Of a stretch of 64,000 bases of DNA, positions 4,783-54,047 are shown piece by piece. Positions within the stretch are counted from its first letter, which is position 1; each line of letters opens with the position of its first letter. The notes under the pieces are model-generated. The model had not been told where the DNA came from and did no database searches. It saw nothing but the letters and a program-made list of their open reading frames with translations. Origin of the DNA: an uncultured bacterium (GTDB lineage Bacteria; Zixibacteria; MSB-5A5; UBA10806); the NCBI GenBank assembly GCA_965602185.1, contig CBFCYP010000001.1, forward strand, positions 1,413 to 65,412. The letters are read 5' to 3'. The position numbers and the translations under genes were made by a program.

Positions 4783-4793
4783 GGGGCAATAAA

Positions 4794-5555: not shown

Positions 5556-5951
5556 GTGGTAATGGAAAATTATAGGATCGGCGCCGAAAACGTCGGTCGT
5601 ATCAAGCCGCAGGCGGGAAAAGAGAGAATCCCGCTCACTTCGAAAACCCCGAACGCCGAGTTTGCGAAGGAGCTTGATAATTCCCTAAAACAACTGACCA
5701 AACTGAAGTTTTCCGGGCATGCCATAGGAAGGCTGGCCGATCGCGGTGTTCAGCTTACCGGCGACAAAGCCTTGAGACTCGAAAACGCCGTCGATGTCGC
5801 CGAGAAGAAAGGCGCCCGGGATTCGTTGGTTCTGCTTGATGAACTGGCCTTTGTGGTGTCGGTGAAAAACAGGACCGTGGTTACCGCCTGTGATATGCAG
5901 GGGATGAAAGAAGGAGTGTTTACTAAAATTGACAGCACTATTCTCGGATAA
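5556..5951 (+). CDS. Small conserved flagellar-operon protein sitting between flgD and flgE (TIGR02530-like by position and size)
   Basis: 131-aa ORF behind a strong AAGGAGG RBS; position-conserved between flgD and flgE as in Firmicute and Thermotoga flagellar operons. The family assignment is from memory, not a search. Confidence 0.5.
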   Translation: MVMENYRIGAENVGRIKPQAGKERIPLTSKTPNAEFAKELDNSLKQLTKLKFSGHAIGRLADRGVQLTGDKALRLENAVDVAEKKGARDSLVLLDELAFVVSVKNRTVVTACDMQGMKEGVFTKIDSTILG

Positions 5952-37115: not shown

Positions 37116-38828
37116 ATGCCGGAAGCAGTCGAAACAAAAGAAAAAAAACTCATTTCAAGGGACGAGCTGGCGAGACTCTTAGAAAATGAAGATTATTCGG
37201 AGGCCGAGGACGCGATCCATGCGCTTCTGGAACAATCCCCGGAAGATATTGAATTGTTGAACTCGCTGGGATCGATATACGCCCGGCGGGCGGATTATTT
37301 TAACGCCGAAAGTACGTTTCGGAACGTAATCGGCATTGATCCTGAATGCGGGGATGCTTACTACAACCTGGGCCTTGTTCACAGCAAACAGTCCCGCAGG
37401 ACCGAAGCCGTGGAAGATTTCCTTAAAGCGGTGGAGATTAATCCTCAAGACGCCGCGGCCCACAACGATCTCGGCGTGCTTTATCATTACCAGGGGAAAA
37501 CGCATCTGGCCAAAGGTCATTTCATAAAAGCCCTGGAAGGCAATATCCTTTATAAAAGGGCCTTGATGAACCTCTTCGAGGTCTGCTTCGATGCTGATTC
37601 TTATTCTGAAGGATTGGCTTGGGTCGAGAAGTTTCTAAACGCCTCCACCGGGAGCAACAATTCAGACGATACGAATCATGATATAAATCTCGTTTCGAAA
37701 GAAAACTCTATAATAGAAAAAGCGAATTCGGTTCAAATCGAAGTAAAAACGAAATCCGAACAAAAGCTGTCCCCGGGCGCGCTTAAACTCACCAAAAGAT
37801 CAAACTCGAAAGCGGATGATATTTTCTTAAAACATGTCCCCGAAGAACTGCGCGAGAAGAAAACGGGGAAGAATATAGCCATAATCGCCGATTTCAATAT
37901 CGCCGGGCAGCTGTCTTTGCTGTTCAGGATGATTAACAGGTATACGATTCACAAGGCCCGCATGGTAATAATCCAGGACGATTATCTTACTTATGACAGG
38001 GATCTGATCCTCTCCCGGGACGGCGAAAAAGGCCATAAAGAAGCATTGGATATTGTCGAACATGCGGACTTCTATCATATGGGAAGATTTCCCAAGCCTG
38101 TTGAAAGCGTAAACTGGGAAGAACACCTGAAACCGGATAATTCTCTTATACAATATTACGGCTCCGAGATAAGAACCAACTCGGTTCAATTGTACAGGTG
38201 GCACACTCAGAACAGAATTCTCGGGCTTTCGTGCTGGGATTATACCATGCTGGAAAACGCGCCGTTTTTCTACCATACCAATATCATGTGTGATTTATCG
38301 AGAATAAAACAATGCTCCGAGCCTACCGATACAATCAGGATCTGCCACCCGCCCACCAATCGCCAGTTTAAAAAAACCGATCTCTTTCTCTCCGTCGTCG
38401 AGAAGCTCAAAAAGAAAAATTATCCCTTTGAGGTGGAGTTGATAGAACGTAAATCAAACGAGGAATGCCTGGATATAAAAAGCCGCTGTCACATGACCTA
38501 TGATCAGATCTCCGTCGGTATTTACGGTTTATCCGCCATCGAGTCCATGGCCGCGGGCCACGCCGTCCTGTGCGGGATTTCGAACTTCGCCTCCAGCTAT
38601 CATCCGGATAATCCCGTCGTTTACGTCACCGAAGAGAATCTATATGACAGGCTGGAATACCTCCTCAGAAACAAAGAGGAGATTACCCGTATCGGAAACG
38701 CGGGCAAGATCTGGGCCAGAACTCATCATGATCCCATGAAACTCATAAGGCAATATGTCTGGATATACGACCTGGTGATGAACGGACACAGGATTGTGGA
38801 TGACCGCGATATGTTTCTTCTAACATAG
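37116..38828 (+). CDS. TPR-repeat protein with a C-terminal GT-B-like glycosyltransferase domain
   Basis: N-terminal TPR repeats (AYYNLGLVHSKQSRRTEAVEDFLKAVEINPQDAAAHNDLGVLY). The C-terminal region carries a GT1/GT4-like motif (GLSAIESMAAGHAVLCG). Confidence 0.5.
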   Translation: MPEAVETKEKKLISRDELARLLENEDYSEAEDAIHALLEQSPEDIELLNSLGSIYARRADYFNAESTFRNVIGIDPECGDAYYNLGLVHSKQSRRTEAVEDFLKAVEINPQDAAAHNDLGVLYHYQGKTHLAKGHFIKALEGNILYKRALMNLFEVCFDADSYSEGLAWVEKFLNASTGSNNSDDTNHDINLVSKENSIIEKANSVQIEVKTKSEQKLSPGALKLTKRSNSKADDIFLKHVPEELREKKTGKNIAIIADFNIAGQLSLLFRMINRYTIHKARMVIIQDDYLTYDRDLILSRDGEKGHKEALDIVEHADFYHMGRFPKPVESVNWEEHLKPDNSLIQYYGSEIRTNSVQLYRWHTQNRILGLSCWDYTMLENAPFFYHTNIMCDLSRIKQCSEPTDTIRICHPPTNRQFKKTDLFLSVVEKLKKKNYPFEVELIERKSNEECLDIKSRCHMTYDQISVGIYGLSAIESMAAGHAVLCGISNFASSYHPDNPVVYVTEENLYDRLEYLLRNKEEITRIGNAGKIWARTHHDPMKLIRQYVWIYDLVMNGHRIVDDRDMFLLT

Positions 38829-38838
38829 GGAGAATGAC

Positions 38839-39831
38839 GTGATAAAAGGTAAAAAGATATTTCTATCCGGGGGCGCCGGCTTTATAGGTTCCGCTCTCAT
38901 CGCCCGGCTGATCGATCATAATGAGATTGTAATATACGACACCTACGCGCGCCACAGCCTGAACGGCAGAAGATTCGAAAAACATCCCAATCTCACCTCC
39001 TGCCGCGGCGACATTCTCGATTTCAAAAACATTAAGAAACATATTGACGGCACTAATATTGTCATACATCTCGCGGCCATCGCCGGTATAGATACCGTAA
39101 TAAAATCCCCCGTAAATACCATGCGGGTAAACATGATCGGCACCTCCAATATGCTGGAGGCGGCTTCGGGACTTACATCGCTTGAGCGATTCGTCGATTT
39201 TTCCACGTCGGAGGTTTTCGGATCGTATGCTTATAGATCCGAAGAGGGAGACTCGACGTCGCTGGGCGCGGTGGGAAACGCCCGCTGGACCTACGCCGTC
39301 TCGAAACTCGCCGGGGAGCACCTTTCCTACAGTTATTACAAAGAAAAGAATATCCCCACGACGACCATACGGCCATTTAATATTTATGGCCCCGGACAGG
39401 TCGGCGAAGGCGCCGTACATCATTTTATTACCAGGGCGTTGAAGGGCGAAGATCTTATAATCAGGGGCAACGGCGATCAAATCAGGTCATGGTGTTATAT
39501 TGACGATATCGTGGACGCCATCCTGGCGGTTCTTGAGAATGACGGAGCCGTCGGAGAGTGCTTCAATATAGGAAATCCCCGCGGCACGGTTACCATTTAT
39601 GGTTTGGCGCTGGCCGCTATCAGGGTGACCTATTCCAAATCTAAAATCGTCTTTGTTGACAAGGATGTAGTCGACGTCGAGCTGAGGATTCCCAATATAG
39701 ATAAGGCCAGGTCCATCCTCGGTTTTCAGCCCGGGGTGGATCTCGAGGAGGGTTTAAAATTAACAGCCGATTGGTATTATGACAGAATTCATTCGAATAC
39801 CGCTTTCGAAGCCAGCCTTGCTGGATGCTGA
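38839..39831 (+). CDS. NAD-dependent sugar epimerase/dehydratase (extended SDR)
   Basis: Rossmann motif GGAGFIGSALIARL and catalytic YAVSK (YxxxK). Confidence 0.85.
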   Translation: MIKGKKIFLSGGAGFIGSALIARLIDHNEIVIYDTYARHSLNGRRFEKHPNLTSCRGDILDFKNIKKHIDGTNIVIHLAAIAGIDTVIKSPVNTMRVNMIGTSNMLEAASGLTSLERFVDFSTSEVFGSYAYRSEEGDSTSLGAVGNARWTYAVSKLAGEHLSYSYYKEKNIPTTTIRPFNIYGPGQVGEGAVHHFITRALKGEDLIIRGNGDQIRSWCYIDDIVDAILAVLENDGAVGECFNIGNPRGTVTIYGLALAAIRVTYSKSKIVFVDKDVVDVELRIPNIDKARSILGFQPGVDLEEGLKLTADWYYDRIHSNTAFEASLAGC

Positions 39832-41552: not shown

Positions 41553-44360
41553 ATGGGTAAAAAGAAAAAAACGGATAGGAATAAAACATCTTTTAAAATA
41601 AAAGAACTCTCGCATCTTGAAATAAACGCGGCGGCGACGGGCATGACCGTCAACCCGCATAAAAATTATAATGATATAATTAAAAAAGCGGAAAAATCCG
41701 GCCCTAAACAGGATCTGGCGGCCGGATATTTTGGCCTGGTATTATCCCTGGTCGAAAAGGGAGAGTTTGAAGAGGCTCTGAATAATCTGAATAAAGCCCG
41801 CCATATTTTTGGCAATTATCTGGATGCCTGTTTTCTTGAATTCAACATATATTATAAACGATCCGAATATGAAAAATCCCTGAAAGCGGGGGAGGAGTAT
41901 CTGAAAATAAGGGAGAGTTGCGACCCTCTGAAAGACGCCCATTTGAGTCGGTCCTATAACAGCTACGCCGACGTCCTGTGGGTACTTTCGGATTCGGCGC
42001 GCCGAACGCTCGATTTCAAGAAATCGTTGCGGTATCAGCGGGAGGCCGTATCGCTTCATCCTGAAAATCATTTCTGGCGCATAATATATGCCAGCAACCT
42101 CCAGAAAGATGATTACCTCGATGACGCCATATCTGTAATTGATGAAGGGATTGAGCTGTTTCCCTATGAGGTCGGTTTAAAAAACGCCAAAGCGCTGGTT
42201 TATGGAGATGCGGAGAAATTTGATGAGGCGCTCACGATCCTGGATGAAATCATCGCGGTAAATCCGAAAGACGTAGACGCATTTGTAAATCGGGGCGTGG
42301 TTCTGGAGAAAATGGGTGATTATACAGCCGCGGAAGCCTGTTTCAAAAAAGCCCTGAAAATCGATCCTCGGCATGAAATTGCCAATAGTAATTTAATAAA
42401 GCTGAAAGAGACTATTGATGATAAACCTCAGAAAATTTCTCTTTGTATGATTGTTAAAAACGAGGAGAAATTTCTGCCCGGTTGCCTGGAATCCGCGAAA
42501 GGACTTGCGGACGAATTAATCGTTGTCGACACCGGATCTACGGATCCTACTATGGATATCGCCAGGAAATATGGCGCGATAGTATATGAGCATCCCTGGC
42601 AGAACGATTTTTCCTACCATAGAAATCAATCCATAGACTACGCCACCGGAGACTGGATATTGATCCTGGACGCCGATGAAGAACTGGATCCGTCGGAGCA
42701 CAATATGATCCGTGGCGCCGTTCGTCGTAAAGATATCGACGCGGTATCTTTTGTCGTATACAACAAAATTCAAGGCGGCCGTACCGGATTTTTGAACTCC
42801 CACAGGCTATTCAGAAATAAAAAGGAATATCGCTATTCGGGAATTGTCCATAATCAACTGGTAATGGACGGCATAACTCTATCGACACAACTGAAAGTTT
42901 ATCATCACGGTTACGGTCTTTCGGACGAGCAGATGAAGGCCAAAGGGAAGAGAACCGAAAAACTCCTTAAAGAGCAATTGAAGGAAAATCCCGATAACGC
43001 TTTCGCGCATTTTAACCTGGCGCAAATATATCGCGGGCTCGCCGAGCCGGAGAAAAGCCTTGAGCACGCCCGAAGGGTAATTGAAATATTAAGCCCGGAT
43101 AATGTCGACCGCAGGCATGTTTACGTAATGGCGCTGGATCAGATCGGCTGCGCATACGTCGGACTCGACAATCACGAAAAAGCCAAAGAATATTTTTATA
43201 AGGCTCTTGAGATCAAAGAAGATTATCTCGATCCACTGTTCAATCTGGGCTACGTCTTTTCAAAACAGTGTAATTATGATAAAGCCGATGAGCTTTTCTT
43301 GCGGTATTTGAAAGTACGGGGAAACTTCTCGGAGCATCGTGAATGGATGGGATTGATATTAAATAATCTTAACAGTCATTTCGCGGTTTATTACGGGCTG
43401 GGGCTCTCTCAATATTTCAGGAATAACATCGCTAAAGCCCTGGAGTATTTCCATAAAGTTATTGAGGAAGTAGGAGATTTCGAATATACGCAACATCTTA
43501 TCGCGCGATGTTACAGGCAGAAAAAACAGTTTGATAGGGTCGTCTTTCATTGCGGCAAAGCCATAGAAAACGGACATGAGGATTCCGAAATTTATGTTCT
43601 TCTTGGCGAGGCACATCTTAATCTCGGCAACCATAAGGAGGCGACCGAAAGCTTTGAAAAAGCTCTGCGATATGATGATTCCGGCAACTCCTCGCTTCTG
43701 GGACTGGCGGGAGCGGCATCGCTCGAAGGGGATTTAAAAAAAGCTTCCGAAGCGGTTGACAGGGCTTTGAAAAATACTCCCAACTCACCCCAGGCTTTGG
43801 CGGCCAAGGGAGAATTACTGTACCATTCCAAAAGTTTCATATCGGCCGCGGAAAAATACCGGGAGCAATCCAGGGTATCTCCGGGCGATCCCGCAGCGCT
43901 GAACAACCTGGGAAACTGCTTTTTTAAACAACAGAATTACTCCTCTGCCGAACAATTTTACCGTAGAACCCTGAAATTGTCTTCGGATTTTGCGCTGGCT
44001 TATCGAAATCTCGCCGTCTGCCTCATGAAGCAGAATAAATTTGACGAGTCCACCGCTTATCTGGAAAAATACCTGGAATGTTTCCCGAATGATCCCGAAG
44101 CATACGCCACGCTAGGCGATATTTATTATAACGCCAAAAATTACTGGAAGGCCATCGGGCGTTACGAAAAATATGTCGCGGCGTATCCCGAACAACATGA
44201 TGCCATCTTACGGCTTGCGGACTGCTACTTTAATCTGGGCAAACTCGATTCGGCGAAAATGGGGTATAGAGCGGTTTTGCGATCAAATCCCGATAACAAA
44301 ATCGCAAAGAATCGGCTGGAAGAAATAGCTCGATTTACGGAATCTGTTGAATCGCAATAA
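41553..44360 (+). CDS. Large TPR - GT2 glycosyltransferase - TPR fusion protein (935 aa)
   Basis: Central GT-A/GT2 domain (ISLCMIVKNEEKFLPGCLESAKGLADELIVVDTGSTDPT...DWILILDADEEL, with a DxD motif) flanked by many TPR repeats. Confidence 0.75.
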   Translation: MGKKKKTDRNKTSFKIKELSHLEINAAATGMTVNPHKNYNDIIKKAEKSGPKQDLAAGYFGLVLSLVEKGEFEEALNNLNKARHIFGNYLDACFLEFNIYYKRSEYEKSLKAGEEYLKIRESCDPLKDAHLSRSYNSYADVLWVLSDSARRTLDFKKSLRYQREAVSLHPENHFWRIIYASNLQKDDYLDDAISVIDEGIELFPYEVGLKNAKALVYGDAEKFDEALTILDEIIAVNPKDVDAFVNRGVVLEKMGDYTAAEACFKKALKIDPRHEIANSNLIKLKETIDDKPQKISLCMIVKNEEKFLPGCLESAKGLADELIVVDTGSTDPTMDIARKYGAIVYEHPWQNDFSYHRNQSIDYATGDWILILDADEELDPSEHNMIRGAVRRKDIDAVSFVVYNKIQGGRTGFLNSHRLFRNKKEYRYSGIVHNQLVMDGITLSTQLKVYHHGYGLSDEQMKAKGKRTEKLLKEQLKENPDNAFAHFNLAQIYRGLAEPEKSLEHARRVIEILSPDNVDRRHVYVMALDQIGCAYVGLDNHEKAKEYFYKALEIKEDYLDPLFNLGYVFSKQCNYDKADELFLRYLKVRGNFSEHREWMGLILNNLNSHFAVYYGLGLSQYFRNNIAKALEYFHKVIEEVGDFEYTQHLIARCYRQKKQFDRVVFHCGKAIENGHEDSEIYVLLGEAHLNLGNHKEATESFEKALRYDDSGNSSLLGLAGAASLEGDLKKASEAVDRALKNTPNSPQALAAKGELLYHSKSFISAAEKYREQSRVSPGDPAALNNLGNCFFKQQNYSSAEQFYRRTLKLSSDFALAYRNLAVCLMKQNKFDESTAYLEKYLECFPNDPEAYATLGDIYYNAKNYWKAIGRYEKYVAAYPEQHDAILRLADCYFNLGKLDSAKMGYRAVLRSNPDNKIAKNRLEEIARFTESVESQ

Positions 44361-46950: not shown

Positions 46951-46977
46951 TAAAAAAGAGCAGTTGTTTCCGATAAT
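46951..46977 (+). promoter_or_regulatory. Candidate sigma28 promoter for fliD-fliS-fliT-like
   Basis: TAAAAAAG-N10/11-(T)CCGATAAT against TAAAGTTT-N11-GCCGATAA. Confidence 0.45.
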
Positions 46978-49442: not shown

Positions 49443-49877
49443 GTGGCAAATAAAGAGCTGAAAACGTACAGAGATGTTAAAATCAGGAATATGAGTCAAC
49501 GGGAGCTCATAGTTTTCCTTTATGAATCCTCGTTAAGATTAATGGAGGAAGGAAAAGAAAAGATCGCCGCGGGAGACATACCCGGCACCCATGAAAAACT
49601 TGACCGCGCCAGAAACATTTTCCTGCATCTGCTGGCAACGTTGAATCTCGAATCGGGCGGAGAATTCGCCAGAAGGCTATCAGCCCTTTATTCTTATTTT
49701 GTGGAAAAGATCACCATGGCGAACGTGTCCCAAAATGTAGACGAACTGGATGAAATCATTCCATTCGTCAGCGAGATAAAAGAAGCCTGGGAGAAAATGG
49801 AATTTGAAGATCCCGGAAAATCTTCCCCGGGAATCAACAATAACCCGGAGAATCAATTAATCTCGATGGAGGTGTAG
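49443..49877 (+). CDS. fliS: Flagellin export chaperone FliS
   Basis: 144 aa with FliS-family sequence (RELIVFLYESSLRLMEEGKEKIAAGDIPGTHEKLDRARNIFLHLLATL). GTG start. Confidence 0.85.
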   Translation: MANKELKTYRDVKIRNMSQRELIVFLYESSLRLMEEGKEKIAAGDIPGTHEKLDRARNIFLHLLATLNLESGGEFARRLSALYSYFVEKITMANVSQNVDELDEIIPFVSEIKEAWEKMEFEDPGKSSPGINNNPENQLISMEV

Positions 49878-50317
49878 TGAATAATTCCAAGGCCAAGCTG
49901 GTCGCACTCCTGGAATCCAAAAAACGCCTTTTTCAAGATATGGAGAAGATCCTGATCGAACAGGAAAATCTCCTTAAAAATAGGGAGCTTGATGGATTTC
50001 GTGATAAAAGCGAGAATATCGACAGTATTATTGAAAAAATAAAAAACACCGATTATGACATCGCCCGCCTCGAGTCCGATTATACGAGTCTTTCCGGGAT
50101 GCTAAATTCCGGCGATGATGAAATCAAAAGAATACTGGATGGCATAATTAAAATCTCGAAAAGAAATTACGGGCTTATGGATAAGCTGGCTGAAAACCTG
50201 AAAAAATCCTATCAGGATCTTAAGGAAGAGCTGGGTGACACGGTCGAGATGGGCAAAATCAGCGGGTATAAAACTGCAACGCAACCCTCGCCCGTGTATT
50301 TCGATAAAACCAGCTAA
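49877..50317 (+). CDS. FliT-like flagellar chaperone, hypothetical
   Basis: 146-aa helical protein translationally coupled to fliS (GTGA overlap); assigned by position and size. Confidence 0.4.
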   Translation: MNNSKAKLVALLESKKRLFQDMEKILIEQENLLKNRELDGFRDKSENIDSIIEKIKNTDYDIARLESDYTSLSGMLNSGDDEIKRILDGIIKISKRNYGLMDKLAENLKKSYQDLKEELGDTVEMGKISGYKTATQPSPVYFDKTS

Positions 50318-50341
50318 GATATTCGCGCGACTCGCCGATAC
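50315..50341 (+). promoter_or_regulatory. Candidate sigma28 promoter for flgM and the HDOD gene
   Basis: TAAGATAT-N11-GCCGATAC, ending 22 nt before the flgM ATG. Confidence 0.45.
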
Positions 50342-50362: not shown

Positions 50363-50833
50363 ATGAAGATTAACGATTTTAATAATAATATCCCACCGAC
50401 CAACGTCAATCCAAAAACTCATAAATCCGTCGATCATTACGCCTCCGGCGATGGCGACGGAAAAACAATCTCAAAAAACGCTGATTCAAGAGTGAAAGTT
50501 TCGGCTGGTCCCGGCAAGTCTGAGCGCATAGTTTCCGGAAAAGACAGAATAGAGCTGAACATAAATCGCGCTGCTGTTACCGGAGCTGAAATCTCCCGGC
50601 ATGCGCCCGATCTCAAAGATTCTATCAAACCGGGGGAGATGGCAAAGGAAGCAATTTACAGCCCTGAAAGCGTTTCCGGGACCGCGAAAATTTCGCATGA
50701 TGCTTCCCACGAAATTAAACTTTCGAAAGTTCGACAAAAAATTGCCGATGGTTATTATGATACTCCCGAATTTATAGAAAGGCTGGCGGAAAAGCTGATT
50801 GAAAAATTTTATCTATCCGGGGAGAAAAATTAA
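50363..50833 (+). CDS. flgM: Anti-sigma28 factor FlgM
   Basis: C-terminal FlgM domain (KLSKVRQKIADGYYDTPEFIERLAEKLIEKF) on a disordered N-terminal region. Confidence 0.75.
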   Translation: MKINDFNNNIPPTNVNPKTHKSVDHYASGDGDGKTISKNADSRVKVSAGPGKSERIVSGKDRIELNINRAAVTGAEISRHAPDLKDSIKPGEMAKEAIYSPESVSGTAKISHDASHEIKLSKVRQKIADGYYDTPEFIERLAEKLIEKFYLSGEKN

Positions 50834-50835
50834 TA

Positions 50836-51732
50836 ATGCAGGCTACAACTGAGACTACGGAAAAAAAGCTTAAAATTATCGTAGATAAGATTCATAACCT
50901 TCCCACCCCTCCGATCGTTTTTTCGCAGATTACGAAAGTTATAAATAATCCGGATACTTCAGCCTATGAAATCGGCGGTATCATAGCCGAAGACCCCGCG
51001 CTCACCGCCAAAGTGCTGAAACTCACAAACTCGTCCTTTTATGGCATTCCCAGAACGATAACCAACGTGAAACAGGCGATCGTTATTCTGGGCCTGGATG
51101 CCATCAAATCGCTGGTCATCTCGGCGTCGGTTTTTGATGCATTTTCGAAAAACAAGGTCCTTGACACCGAATATCTGGAAAACTTCTGGCGTCACTCTCT
51201 CCTGGTGGCGTTTATGGCTAAAATTATCAGCAGGTTCAGAAAAACATCGAACCTCCAGGAGGCGGAAATAGCCTTTTCGGGAGGTCTTTTACACGATATC
51301 GGAAAATTAATATTAATCTCTCATCTCCCCGATGAATATCTGAAAATAAAAGCCATACAGGAGAAAGAATCAGCGATGTCGGAGATTGATATTGAATCCG
51401 ATGTTCTGCAATTTAATCATGCCCATCTGGGAAGCTATATGGCAGGGAAATGGAATCTTCCGGAAGAGATCTGCGACGCTATTATGAACCACCATTCGGA
51501 AGAAGCCTTGCCGACCAATATCCTGTCCGCCGTAATTCATCTGGCTGATTATCTTGGCCATAAAAATGGACTTTCTGATGATAATATAATCGAAAGAAAG
51601 AATCCTTTCTATCAAAGCGTTTGGACGATTCTCGGTGTGGAGTCATCATCGACGGATCGGATGCTGGAAATGCTGAGAAGCGAATACGCCAAAGCCGAAA
51701 CGTTTCTGAAAATGGCCCAGGGAATGGGTTGA
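50836..51732 (+). CDS. HDOD-domain signalling protein
   Basis: HDOD features: [52 protein letters not shown]. Confidence 0.8.
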   Translation: MQATTETTEKKLKIIVDKIHNLPTPPIVFSQITKVINNPDTSAYEIGGIIAEDPALTAKVLKLTNSSFYGIPRTITNVKQAIVILGLDAIKSLVISASVFDAFSKNKVLDTEYLENFWRHSLLVAFMAKIISRFRKTSNLQEAEIAFSGGLLHDIGKLILISHLPDEYLKIKAIQEKESAMSEIDIESDVLQFNHAHLGSYMAGKWNLPEEICDAIMNHHSEEALPTNILSAVIHLADYLGHKNGLSDDNIIERKNPFYQSVWTILGVESSSTDRMLEMLRSEYAKAETFLKMAQGMG

Positions 51733-51933
51733 AATCCGGTATAAATCCGAAAAATAGTCCATATAACGATTTTAGATGCGACAACTGCATTTTGAGATTT
51801 TTTCCTTGCCCGATTTTTTATGGAAAAGTATATTAACCCTTGATGACCGGTTTCGAATTCGGTTGTCATATGATGTGTGTGTTTTTGGAGACCGGCGAAA
51901 TATCGATCGGCCTCGAGTGGATTTAAGTAATAT

Positions 51934-51959
51934 TAAATTTGGACTTTTGTTGCCGATAA
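51934..51959 (+). promoter_or_regulatory. Near-consensus sigma28-type promoter immediately upstream of tRNA-Val
   Basis: TAAATTTG-N10-GCCGATAA, an 8 of 8 match to the -10 consensus. The -10 ends 8 nt before tRNA nucleotide 1. Confidence 0.4.
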
Positions 51960-51967
51960 TTTTACCG

Positions 51968-52044
51968 GGGCGATTAGCTCAGATGGTTAGAGTACTTGCT
52001 TGACATGCAAGGGGTCACTGGTTCAATTCCAGTATCGCCCACCA
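51968..52044 (+). tRNA. tRNA-Val (anticodon GAC), CCA encoded
   Basis: Manual cloverleaf: acceptor GGGCGAT/ATCGCCC, D-arm GCTC-AGATGGTTA-GAGT, anticodon stem CTTGC/GCAAG with loop TTGACAT, T-arm ACTGG-TTCAATT-CCAGT, discriminator A plus CCA. Confidence 0.9.
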
Positions 52045-52124
52045 TTGTGTATGAGAGGCGGCAACAGTCTGGAGGTTTTGAAGTCTAAGCTGCCCTCTTT
52101 GGGTAGCTGATTTTTATTTAGGTA

Positions 52125-54047
52125 ATGATTACAGTAAGGTTTCCCGACAATTCGAAAAAAGAGTTCGAAGAGAGTATCACTCCGGCCGAAATAGTGAAAT
52201 TGATTTCCAATTCGCTGGCCAGAAAAGCCTTGGGCGCGGTTGTTAATGAAACCGTTGTAGACCTATCTTGCTCCATAAAAACCGATTGCTCTCTGAGAAT
52301 TCTTACTTTTGATGACCCCGAAGGTAGGGAGATCTTCTGGCATTCCTCGGCGCATCTGATGGCTTCTGCGGTTCTAAAGCTGTTTCCGGATACGAAACTG
52401 GCCATCGGACCGGCTGTTCCCGACGATTTTTCATCGAGGTTTTATTACGATCTCGATATGAATCACAAACTTGCGGAGGAAGACCTTGTCGCTATCGAAA
52501 TGAAAATGCAGGAATTGGCCGCAAAGAATCTTCCTTTTGAAAGAACCGAGGAAAATCGTCAGGCAGCGATATCAAGGTTTAAGGACGAGGAAGATATATA
52601 TAAAGCTGAGATGGCGTCCGAAATGGAGGATGAAAATGTCAGCTTTTATAGTCATAACGACTTTATGGATATGTGCCGGGGACCGCATATACCCTCTACA
52701 GGTCACATAAAAGCCGTTAAGCTCCTTTCAATCGCCGGAGCCTACTGGCGAGGCGATGAGAAAAATAAGATGCTCCAGAGAATATATGGGGTGAGTTTTC
52801 CCGATAAAAAGATGCTGGATGAGCATTTGAGCAAAATCGAGGAGGCCAAAAAACGCGACCACCGTTATCTGGGCCGCGATCTCGATCTTTTCTCAATTTC
52901 GGAATCCGTCGGTTCAGGTTTGGTTCTCTGGCACCCTCGCGGAGCGATTGTAAGAACCATCATCGAAAATTTCTGGCGGGAGGAACACCTCAAAAACGGG
53001 TATGATATCGTATATTCGCCCCATATAGCCAAACTGGATCTCTGGGACAAATCGGGGCATACAGATTTTTATTCGGAAAACATGTATTCCCCCATGGCGA
53101 TTGACGAGGTTAACTACGAGATAAAACCTATGAACTGCCCTTTTCATATTCATATTTATAAGTCTAAAACCAGGAGCTACCGGGATCTTCCGTTCAGATG
53201 GGCCGAATTGGGCACAGTATATCGTTATGAACGTTCAGGAGTCTTGCATGGCCTCATGCGCGTCAGGGGATTTACCCAGGACGATGCTCATATTTTCTGC
53301 CGTCCCGATCAGTTGCAGGTAGAGCTCGAGAGAACCATAAAATTCAACCTCTTTTTCCTGAGAACCTTTAAATTCGATAATTTCGACGTTTACCTTTCCA
53401 CTCGCCCCGAGAAGTTCGTTGGAACCACCGCAGGATGGGACAGGGCAACCGACGCGTTAAAAAACGCCCTGGAGGCGACGGAGACAAAATACGAAATCGA
53501 TCCCGGCGAGGGGGTTTTTTACGGCCCCAAAATCGATATCAAAATTAAGGATAATCTCGGCCGCTCGTGGCAATGCACCACGATTCAGGTCGATTTCAAT
53601 CTTCCCGATAGATTCGAGATCGAATATATCGCCGACGACGGTTCCAGGAAACAGCCCATCATGATTCATCGCGCCTTGCTGGGATCCATGGAACGCTTCT
53701 TTGGCGTGCTTATCGAACATTACGCCGGTAATTTTCCCTTGTGGTTGGCCCCCGAACAGATTAGAATCCTTCCGGTGACCGATTTTGCGAACCGATACGG
53801 CGATAAATTAGTTGACACTTTTAAAAAAGGGGGTTTCAGAACCGGGATCGATCTCTCCCGCGAGAAAATCGGGAAGAAGATAAGAGACGCGGAGAGTATG
53901 AAAATCCCGTACATGGCGGTTATCGGCAAAAAAGAGATTGAAGAAGGCACGATTTCGCTCCGAAAACATACAATAGGTAACATTGGAGAGATATCGATAG
54001 ATGATGCTATCGGGAATCTGAAAGAAGAAGTTGAGAATAAAAACTGA
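52125..54047 (+). CDS. thrS: Threonyl-tRNA synthetase
   Basis: N-terminal TGS domain, class II core (HRALLGSMERFFGVLIEHYAGNFPLWLAP) and a C-terminal anticodon-binding domain. Confidence 0.95.
   Translation: MITVRFPDNSKKEFEESITPAEIVKLISNSLARKALGAVVNETVVDLSCSIKTDCSLRILTFDDPEGREIFWHSSAHLMASAVLKLFPDTKLAIGPAVPDDFSSRFYYDLDMNHKLAEEDLVAIEMKMQELAAKNLPFERTEENRQAAISRFKDEEDIYKAEMASEMEDENVSFYSHNDFMDMCRGPHIPSTGHIKAVKLLSIAGAYWRGDEKNKMLQRIYGVSFPDKKMLDEHLSKIEEAKKRDHRYLGRDLDLFSISESVGSGLVLWHPRGAIVRTIIENFWREEHLKNGYDIVYSPHIAKLDLWDKSGHTDFYSENMYSPMAIDEVNYEIKPMNCPFHIHIYKSKTRSYRDLPFRWAELGTVYRYERSGVLHGLMRVRGFTQDDAHIFCRPDQLQVELERTIKFNLFFLRTFKFDNFDVYLSTRPEKFVGTTAGWDRATDALKNALEATETKYEIDPGEGVFYGPKIDIKIKDNLGRSWQCTTIQVDFNLPDRFEIEYIADDGSRKQPIMIHRALLGSMERFFGVLIEHYAGNFPLWLAPEQIRILPVTDFANRYGDKLVDTFKKGGFRTGIDLSREKIGKKIRDAESMKIPYMAVIGKKEIEEGTISLRKHTIGNIGEISIDDAIGNLKEEVENKN

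Follow-up and report, generated by a model that had tools for sequence, protein, structure and literature searches.

The sequence directly upstream of the tRNA-Val(GAC) gene in this Zixibacteria genome, which includes a near-perfect match to a sigma-28 promoter, is on balance best regarded as the 3' end of a transcribed tRNA precursor leader of ca. 125 nt. The precursor would be served by an upstream sigma-70-type promoter (P1), and the end of its leader is predicted to pair with the trailer in a helix that encloses the tRNA. The sigma-28 match would be at most a species-specific secondary promoter, not a conserved coupling device.

Genomic context of the tRNA-Val gene

The window, the whole 64-kb stretch of DNA that was analyzed, comes from a Zixibacteria lineage; the HDOD protein it encodes shares 92% identity with that of a Candidatus Zixiibacteriota genome (CP070742.1). 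The tRNA-Val(GAC) gene (51968–52044, + strand, as are all of the promoters, RNA elements and the sigma factor gene described below) was identified with ARAGORN and scores 68.9 bits as an Rfam tRNA. It encodes its CCA end and is 100% identical in six lineages. Upstream is an HDOD gene (50836–51732; Pfam, 2.4e-60), and downstream is the operon thrS-infC-rpmI-rplT-pheST. The window also encodes a 751-aa flagellin, FliD, FliS, and the sigma factor cognate to sigma-28 promoters: fliA (18705–19463), of the FliA/WhiG family, scores 264 bits against TIGR02479, which has a cut-off of 189.6.

A first-pass annotation of this DNA placed the tRNA between flgM and an HDOD gene on one side and thrS-infC-rpmI-rplT on the other. 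The HDOD gene and the thrS operon are as it described. The “flgM”, a 156-aa ORF (50363–50833), had no match in Pfam or NCBIfam and is FlgM-like at its C-terminus alone (KVRQKIADGYYDTPEFIERLAEKLIEKF), which we take to recall the sigma-28-binding end of FlgM. The neighboring 146-aa ORF (49877–50317) has a faint match to FlgN. Between flgL and the flagellin gene there are large TPR and glycosyltransferase-like (SunS-type) proteins and a sugar dehydratase (41553–44360 and 37116–39831), which suggests glycosylation of the flagellin.

The sigma-28-like motif

The motif (51934–51959) consists of a -35-like octamer, TAAATTTG (51934–51941), and the exact sigma-28 -10 octamer, GCCGATAA (51952–51959), at a distance of 10 nt. 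Another 8 nt (ttttaccg) separate the -10 octamer from G51968, the first base of the tRNA, so that the coordinates and letters first reported for this site are correct. The -10 matches at 8 of 8 positions, including the CGA core, and the -35 has a full TAAA (4/4) within an octamer that matches at 6 of 8. The site had been called the best sigma-28 match in the window, and in our own scan it does rank first (12/12), followed by the fliD promoter (46951–46976, 11/12) and a gene-start site at 4790. It is also the single occurrence of an exact TAAA-N13-17-GCCGATAA on either strand of the window; shuffled windows had a mean of 0.12 perfect matches, and 11 of 100 had at least one. The match is better than those of the genome's own fliC (GTCGATTA), fliD (TCCGATAA) and flgM-like (GCCGATAC) promoters, and the geometry of its TTAAA is that of the fliD promoter of the window. 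Both the fliD promoter and the tRNA-proximal site have TTGTT just before the -10. Judged by its sequence, the motif is a near-consensus sigma-28 promoter.

Class 3 sigma-28 promoters of E. coli, Salmonella and Pseudomonas (TAAAGTTT-N11-GCCGATAA; PMC2859248, PMC12784957) have the same -10 and TAAA, and their start distance of 6–8 nt would fit the 5' end of the tRNA. The octamer spacing here, N10, is one short of that consensus, and fliA is encoded nearby. In contrast to these promoters, the site in the window has an unconserved -35, a conserved spacer, and as its target the tRNA of a housekeeping operon.

Conservation among related lineages

The orthologous locus, fliD-fliS-unknown-flgM-like-HDOD-tRNA-Val-thrS, was recovered from related lineages. 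HDOD identity to the window was 92% in L169, 82% in L171 and L172, 76% in L174 and L175, 74% in L182 (the contig of which stops inside the tRNA), and 73% in L176 and L178. Three more distant orthologous loci, L001, L081 and L002, had ThrS identities of 76%, 73% and 64%. P0018 and P0021 were rejected as orthologs – both are HDOD paralogs in other contexts. In L173 (6258–7154) and L183 (2535–3434), a second HDOD paralog stands in tandem at the place expected for the tRNA, and there is no tRNA on the contig; the second HDOD gene in L183 has a copy-like sigma-28 box upstream, CTAAA-N15-GGCCGAAATA. In L176 (6123–6432 of CP070813.1), the tRNA-Val, leader block, helix and terminator are intact and are followed by a 51-aa thrS fragment and unrelated genes, the result of a genomic rearrangement, of an insertion, or of faulty assembly.

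The proposed check, whether relatives keep a box before this tRNA, came out positive for one of the two elements and negative for the other. GCCGATAA is present in L169, L171, L174, L176 and L178, and as GCCGATAG in L182, always 8–9 nt from the tRNA in these six close lineages and the window, seven in all. The block shared by all of the close lineages at this distance is TTGCCGATA(A/G)(T)TTTT(A/G)C(C/A/T)G, and the six related lineages share TTGGACTTTTGYTGCCGATAA(T)TTTTRCNG. In five lineages the conserved block is preceded by TTGGACT(T/C)TTG; L178 and L182 instead have TTTGAATGTTTG there, with TTTGAATGTTTGTT directly before the octamer. The -35 TAAA, however, is found in the window only and is absent from all six relatives. 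The sequences at its position in relatives are TAGC, CGGT, CAGC, TAGC and TGTC, and neither A51936 nor A51937 is shared by any of five relatives. The full box is also absent from the next three orthologous loci (L001, L081 and L002).

L001 has a degenerate version of the box, GCCGATCT, 10 nt before its tRNA-Val (5815–5833), and the leader segment predicted to pair there (GGCCGCACCCCTCTT) is another one, farther from the tRNA. The presence of GCCGATCT hints at a constraint on GCCGAT that is separate from the helix described below.

The conservation of the locus is uneven. In one alignment of close relatives, identity to the window was 0.58 in the leader hairpins and 0.60 in the AT-rich stretch containing the TAAA, rose to 0.92 both in 51938–51954 and in the 5' linker (51955–51967), and was 1.00 in the tRNA. 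On the other side of the tRNA it was 0.85 in the 3' linker, 0.76 in 52057–52073, and 0.44 in the spacer before the terminator.

Predicted upstream promoter, leader and terminator

A sigma-70-type promoter, P1 (51806–51834), consists of TTGCCC-N17-TATATT directly preceded by a T-run. It is invariant across ten orthologous loci: CTTGC and TATATT are unchanged in all eight sequences of the orthologous alignment, and L178 and L182 have them too. The two hexamers are 17 bp apart, and they are kept even in the distant loci without the octamer. Identity within P1 was 0.91 for the T-run and -35 block, 1.00 for the -10, and 0.69 for the spacer. It had been noted that no convincing sigma-70 spacing is present in the annotated stretch, with TTGGAC-N10-GATAAT as the closest fit. 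That fit is indeed too short, but the statement applies only inside 51934–52044 and fails when the next 100 nt upstream, where P1 lies, are included. Transcription from P1 would start at ca. 51841–51843, ca. 126 nt upstream of the tRNA.

Two hairpins are predicted in the resulting 5' leader (51841–51920), and the putative transcript would begin with the first of them. In the RNAalifold structure, their pairs are kept via one- and two-sided changes. At ca. 125 nt, the structured leader is long for one tRNA gene. It matched no Rfam family; the Rfam search of the locus returned the tRNA only, with no T-box or other cis-regulatory family at threshold.

An intrinsic-terminator-like hairpin with a U-run (52088–52119) follows the tRNA in all aligned loci. 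All of its cells (100%) are paired in the six lineages compared, in which one change is two-sided and four are one-sided. The hairpin ends 17 nt before thrS, the ATG of which is at 52125. As every orthologous locus has it ahead of the thrS start, expression of thrS seems to require read-through past the terminator. Sigma-28 transcripts reading through into thrS-infC-rpmI-rplT, as the first-pass annotation had proposed, would likewise have to pass this conserved terminator.

The E. coli thrS operator uses a threonine-anticodon-like loop. No such loop is found among the hairpin loops here. The idea that the hairpin preceding thrS mimics the threonine anticodon was rejected, as the loops are unconserved and have no resemblance to it.

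A predicted helix between leader and trailer

RNAalifold applied to five lineages paired 51938–51954 with the trailer strand 52057–52073 and left the cloverleaf intact, giving a 16-bp helix that encloses the tRNA. For the window and for L178, the minimum free energy fold and the centroid both contain the same helix. Its duplex z-score against shuffles was between -2.4 and -4.2 in five clade members; among 99 other tRNA-Val/thrS loci used as a control, none had a z-score below -2, and the median was 0.1. Thus the flanks of this tRNA are complementary segments predicted to pair, as in a processing helix. With P1 upstream and no predicted terminator between, both strands would be part of one transcript.

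Across six lineages, 94.8% of the helix cells are paired; seven changes affect one side of a pair, and one, G-C to A-U in L178, affects both. When the whole structure was slid to other registers, 35–63% of cells were paired. Owing to the closeness of the six sequences, a covariation shuffle control was non-significant (92 of 500 shuffles were as good). Against the helix reading, identity is higher in the leader strand (0.92) than in the trailer strand (0.76); the changes in the latter keep pairing.

This structure runs across the sigma-28-like motif. The TAAA half of the -35-like octamer is species-specific, and its TTTG half belongs to the helix leader strand. The GCC of GCCGATAA is paired in the helix, and the GATAA opens the conserved 5' linker, GAUAAUUUUACCG, which is predicted to be single-stranded. 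A promoter for the tRNA cannot explain the conservation of the 3' linker and trailer strand, both of which are above the background of 0.44–0.60. According to the structural model, the conserved “spacer” and GCC of the motif are the 5' strand of the leader-trailer helix, and this explains their conservation better than a promoter does.

Leader-trailer helices of precursor rRNA (PMC11404451, PMC10250234) are similar in having complementary flanks in one transcript, a long helix and single-stranded linkers. The putative helix here differs in having 16 bp, in surrounding one free-standing tRNA, and in being restricted to a single Zixibacteria sub-clade, with none among 99 other tRNA-Val loci; any cleavage by RNase III is putative. 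A small ORF in the trailer (ATG at 52051, MRGGNS...) was considered and rejected – it has no ribosome-binding site, and its substitutions are not skewed to silent positions.

Comparison with flagellar promoters of the same genomes

The sigma-28 promoters of flagellar genes in the same lineages provide an internal reference. The -10 of the fliD promoter (46951–46976), TCCGATAA, is conserved in ten lineages (CCCGATAA in L081). Its -35, TAA(A/T) at N15, is found in eight of the ten, with a variable spacer; in L182 the -35 is beyond the end of the contig. All relatives have one more base in the fliD spacer than the window, where the -35 reads as TTAA at N15 or TAAA at N14. The promoter of the flgM-like/HDOD operon (50315–50341) has the conserved form CTAA(A/G)-N15-(G/A)(C/G)CGATAC, again with a variable spacer. 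For these two promoters, TAA(A/G/T) at N15 and the -10 are kept in nearly every readable lineage, of up to ten.

The pattern at the tRNA-proximal site is the reverse, with a spacer that is 0.92 identical and a -35 that the relatives do not have. Sigma-28 spacers are conserved neither in sequence nor in length (PMC12784957). In the sigma-28 promoter of E. coli aer, single changes in TAAA caused a ca. 9-fold drop, leaving activity that differed by no more than about twofold from that in the absence of FliA (PMC2859248).

A simple scan found no terminator between the HDOD gene and P1, so sigma-28-type transcripts of the flgM-like/HDOD operon could also run on into tRNA-Val.

tRNA-Val and thrS in other phyla

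tRNA-Val(GAC) is directly upstream of thrS in most of the 160 loci that were fetched, from Nitrospirota, Ignavibacteria, Calditrichia, Zixibacteria and others. The gene order of the thrS-infC-rpmI-rplT-pheST translation operon is the usual one. Placing tRNA-Val(GAC) in front of it is shared with many phyla, and the terminator-like hairpin 17 nt before the thrS start is found in this clade. The 115 loci with enough upstream sequence for inspection had no sigma-28 box before tRNA-Val outside the close clade, except for the GCCGATCT of L001. Many loci, including most of those from Nitrospirota, have a plain sigma-70 promoter before tRNA-Val; the Nitrospirota loci stand out for the strong conservation of their promoter (CTTGACA-N17-TATATTAGCATG) and leader, and GCCGATCG occurs within the sigma-70 leader of two Nitrospira loci. 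The tRNA-Val-thrS pair is an old arrangement common to many phyla, with no flagellar genes nearby. As it is widespread and lacks the sigma-28 box outside the close clade, the adjacency to flagellar genes is a Zixibacteria feature.

Model for the locus

In the reading favored here, a precursor would be transcribed from P1 with a leader containing two hairpins. The segment 51938–51954 would pair with the trailer 52057–52073, forming in vivo a 16-bp helix that brackets the tRNA and is processed much as rRNA processing stems are. Conserved single-stranded linkers of 12–13 nt would flank the tRNA on either side, and the terminator would follow before thrS. GCCGATAA would be a clade-conserved part of the leader, probably kept for reasons at the RNA level. 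The invariance of GAUAAUUUU may reflect an RNase E site, though this is only a guess. Two upstream substitutions, found only in the species of the window, create the TAAA and thereby complete the sigma-28 consensus. FliA polymerase may then use the site opportunistically as a second promoter, with a start 1–3 nt before the mature 5' end of the tRNA.

Whether FliA-dependent initiation takes place at the site in this species is a close call that leans slightly toward no, while a selected link between flagella and translation is distinctly unlikely. A comparable case may be the non-conserved intragenic FliA promoters of E. coli (PMC4183435; bioRxiv 10.1101/188474), which also have a good motif and incomplete conservation and are probably able to fire. 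The resemblance would fit a site that arose on sequence under some other constraint. Unlike those promoters, the tRNA-Val site is intergenic, falls within a tRNA leader, and has a -10 conserved in the clade.

A transcript started by FliA would lack the leader strand of the helix, and the four segments could be laid out as an attenuator (1:2, 2:3, 3:4) in which the choice of promoter sets the fate of the RNA. Sigma-70 transcripts would then terminate after the tRNA, and FliA transcripts would give a tRNA-Val with hardly any leader and continue past the terminator into thrS-infC-rpmI-rplT-pheST. In six lineages, the trailer at 52054–52062, freed in a FliA transcript, could form a duplex with 52089–52098, the terminator's 5' arm and loop, at -10 to -16 kcal/mol and z-scores of -0.9 to -3.95. 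However, the terminator persists in folds of the trailer alone in four of these six, so that thermodynamics alone does not support an antiterminator switch. We regard an attenuator of this kind as very unlikely.

Alternative explanations

The strongest alternative is that the motif is a genuine, selected FliA promoter (P2), either sub-clade-wide or newly completed, which coexists with P1 and the helix and supplies more tRNA-Val(GAC) during flagellin synthesis. The perfect 12/12 score, higher than those of the genome's own flagellar promoters, the presence of fliA, and a TTAAA geometry equal to that of fliD all argue for it. So do the octamer at a fixed 8–9 nt from the tRNA in seven lineages, a distance that would place the start at the mature 5' end, and the degenerate box in L001. 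Sigma-28 transcription starts 6–8 nt past the octamer (PMC2859248, PMC12784957); the predicted start at 51965–51967 would thus leave a leader of 1–3 nt. An exact 8/8 octamer within ca. 60 conserved flanking bases, next to late flagellar genes, also counts against the leader reading, with an estimated chance on the order of 1e-3. A comparison of valine codons had been suggested as a test, and GUY does encode 35 of the 42 flagellin valines compared to 58% overall (p = 4e-4). The flagellin, however, is not enriched in valine (5.6% versus 6.2%), and the codon bias is a weak argument that would not by itself point to FliA control. The -35 is missing in all six relatives, in which the bona fide sigma-28 promoters keep theirs, and a conserved spacer is not a property of sigma-28 promoters (PMC12784957). 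The box is absent from L081, L002 and all of the 99+ loci of other phyla. No FliA-dependent tRNA is reported in the SELEX or ChIP maps of E. coli that were consulted; none of its 52 FliA sites belongs to a tRNA, and the account of these sites makes no mention of one (PMC4183435). The idea of a tRNA driven by the flagellar sigma factor, coupling translation to flagellin synthesis, is partly supported: the motif and the fliA gene are present, but the -35 is unconserved, the spacer is conserved, and P1 lies upstream. Such a selected promoter is possible, but we consider it rather unlikely.

The match could instead be a chance one without function, in a block conserved merely because the lineages are close. 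The frequency of perfect matches in shuffles (0.12 per window), the choice of this site as the best match from many windows, and the non-significant covariation test are consistent with chance. Closeness alone would not leave a block at 0.92 in the same alignment as a neighboring leader and pre-terminator spacer at 0.44–0.60, and the stability of the helix is an outlier relative to the 99 control loci; this makes a chance match very improbable. Nor is the block likely to be the proximal promoter of another sigma factor, a reading that we find, if anything, slightly more doubtful still. GATAAT (51955–51960) is conserved and matches TATAAT at five of six positions, and the ca. 126 nt between the P1 start and a proximal start recall E. 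coli rRNA operons, which have tandem promoters. There is no -35 at 16–18 bp, however: ATTAAA, ATTAGC and ATCGGT are poor and unconserved, and TTGGAC is 10 bp from GATAAT. TAAATT, TAATAT and GATAAT were all rejected as sigma-70 -10 elements for want of an acceptable -35. For sigma-54, TGGAC-N-TTGC (TTGGAC...TTGCC) recalls the GG and GC of its promoters, which are exactly 10 nt apart (TGGCAC-N5-TTGC). In every lineage the spacing here is GG-N9-GC (TTGGACTTTTGTTGCC), and the intergenic positions of the window contain no good sigma-54 sites. A Bacteroidota-type -7 element (TAnnTTTG) was considered for TAAATTTG and rejected – the orthologous loci carry an ordinary TTGNNN-N17-TATATT, and look-alikes in Calditrichia are TTGATT-N17-TAAATT promoters.

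Implications

If true, the sigma-28 reading would mean that a flagellar sigma factor directly controls a tRNA gene, linking motility to translation; no such report was found. The comparative evidence makes this link unlikely as a conserved design. The site illustrates that a consensus match can arise on top of sequence kept for another reason. The precursor leader reading would give one Zixibacteria sub-clade a free-standing tRNA in a predicted leader-trailer helix of the rRNA type, preceded by a conserved promoter and a structured leader and followed by a conserved terminator at the thrS start. The model can be tested and may account for the expression of tRNA-Val and of the thrS operon as well as for their separation.
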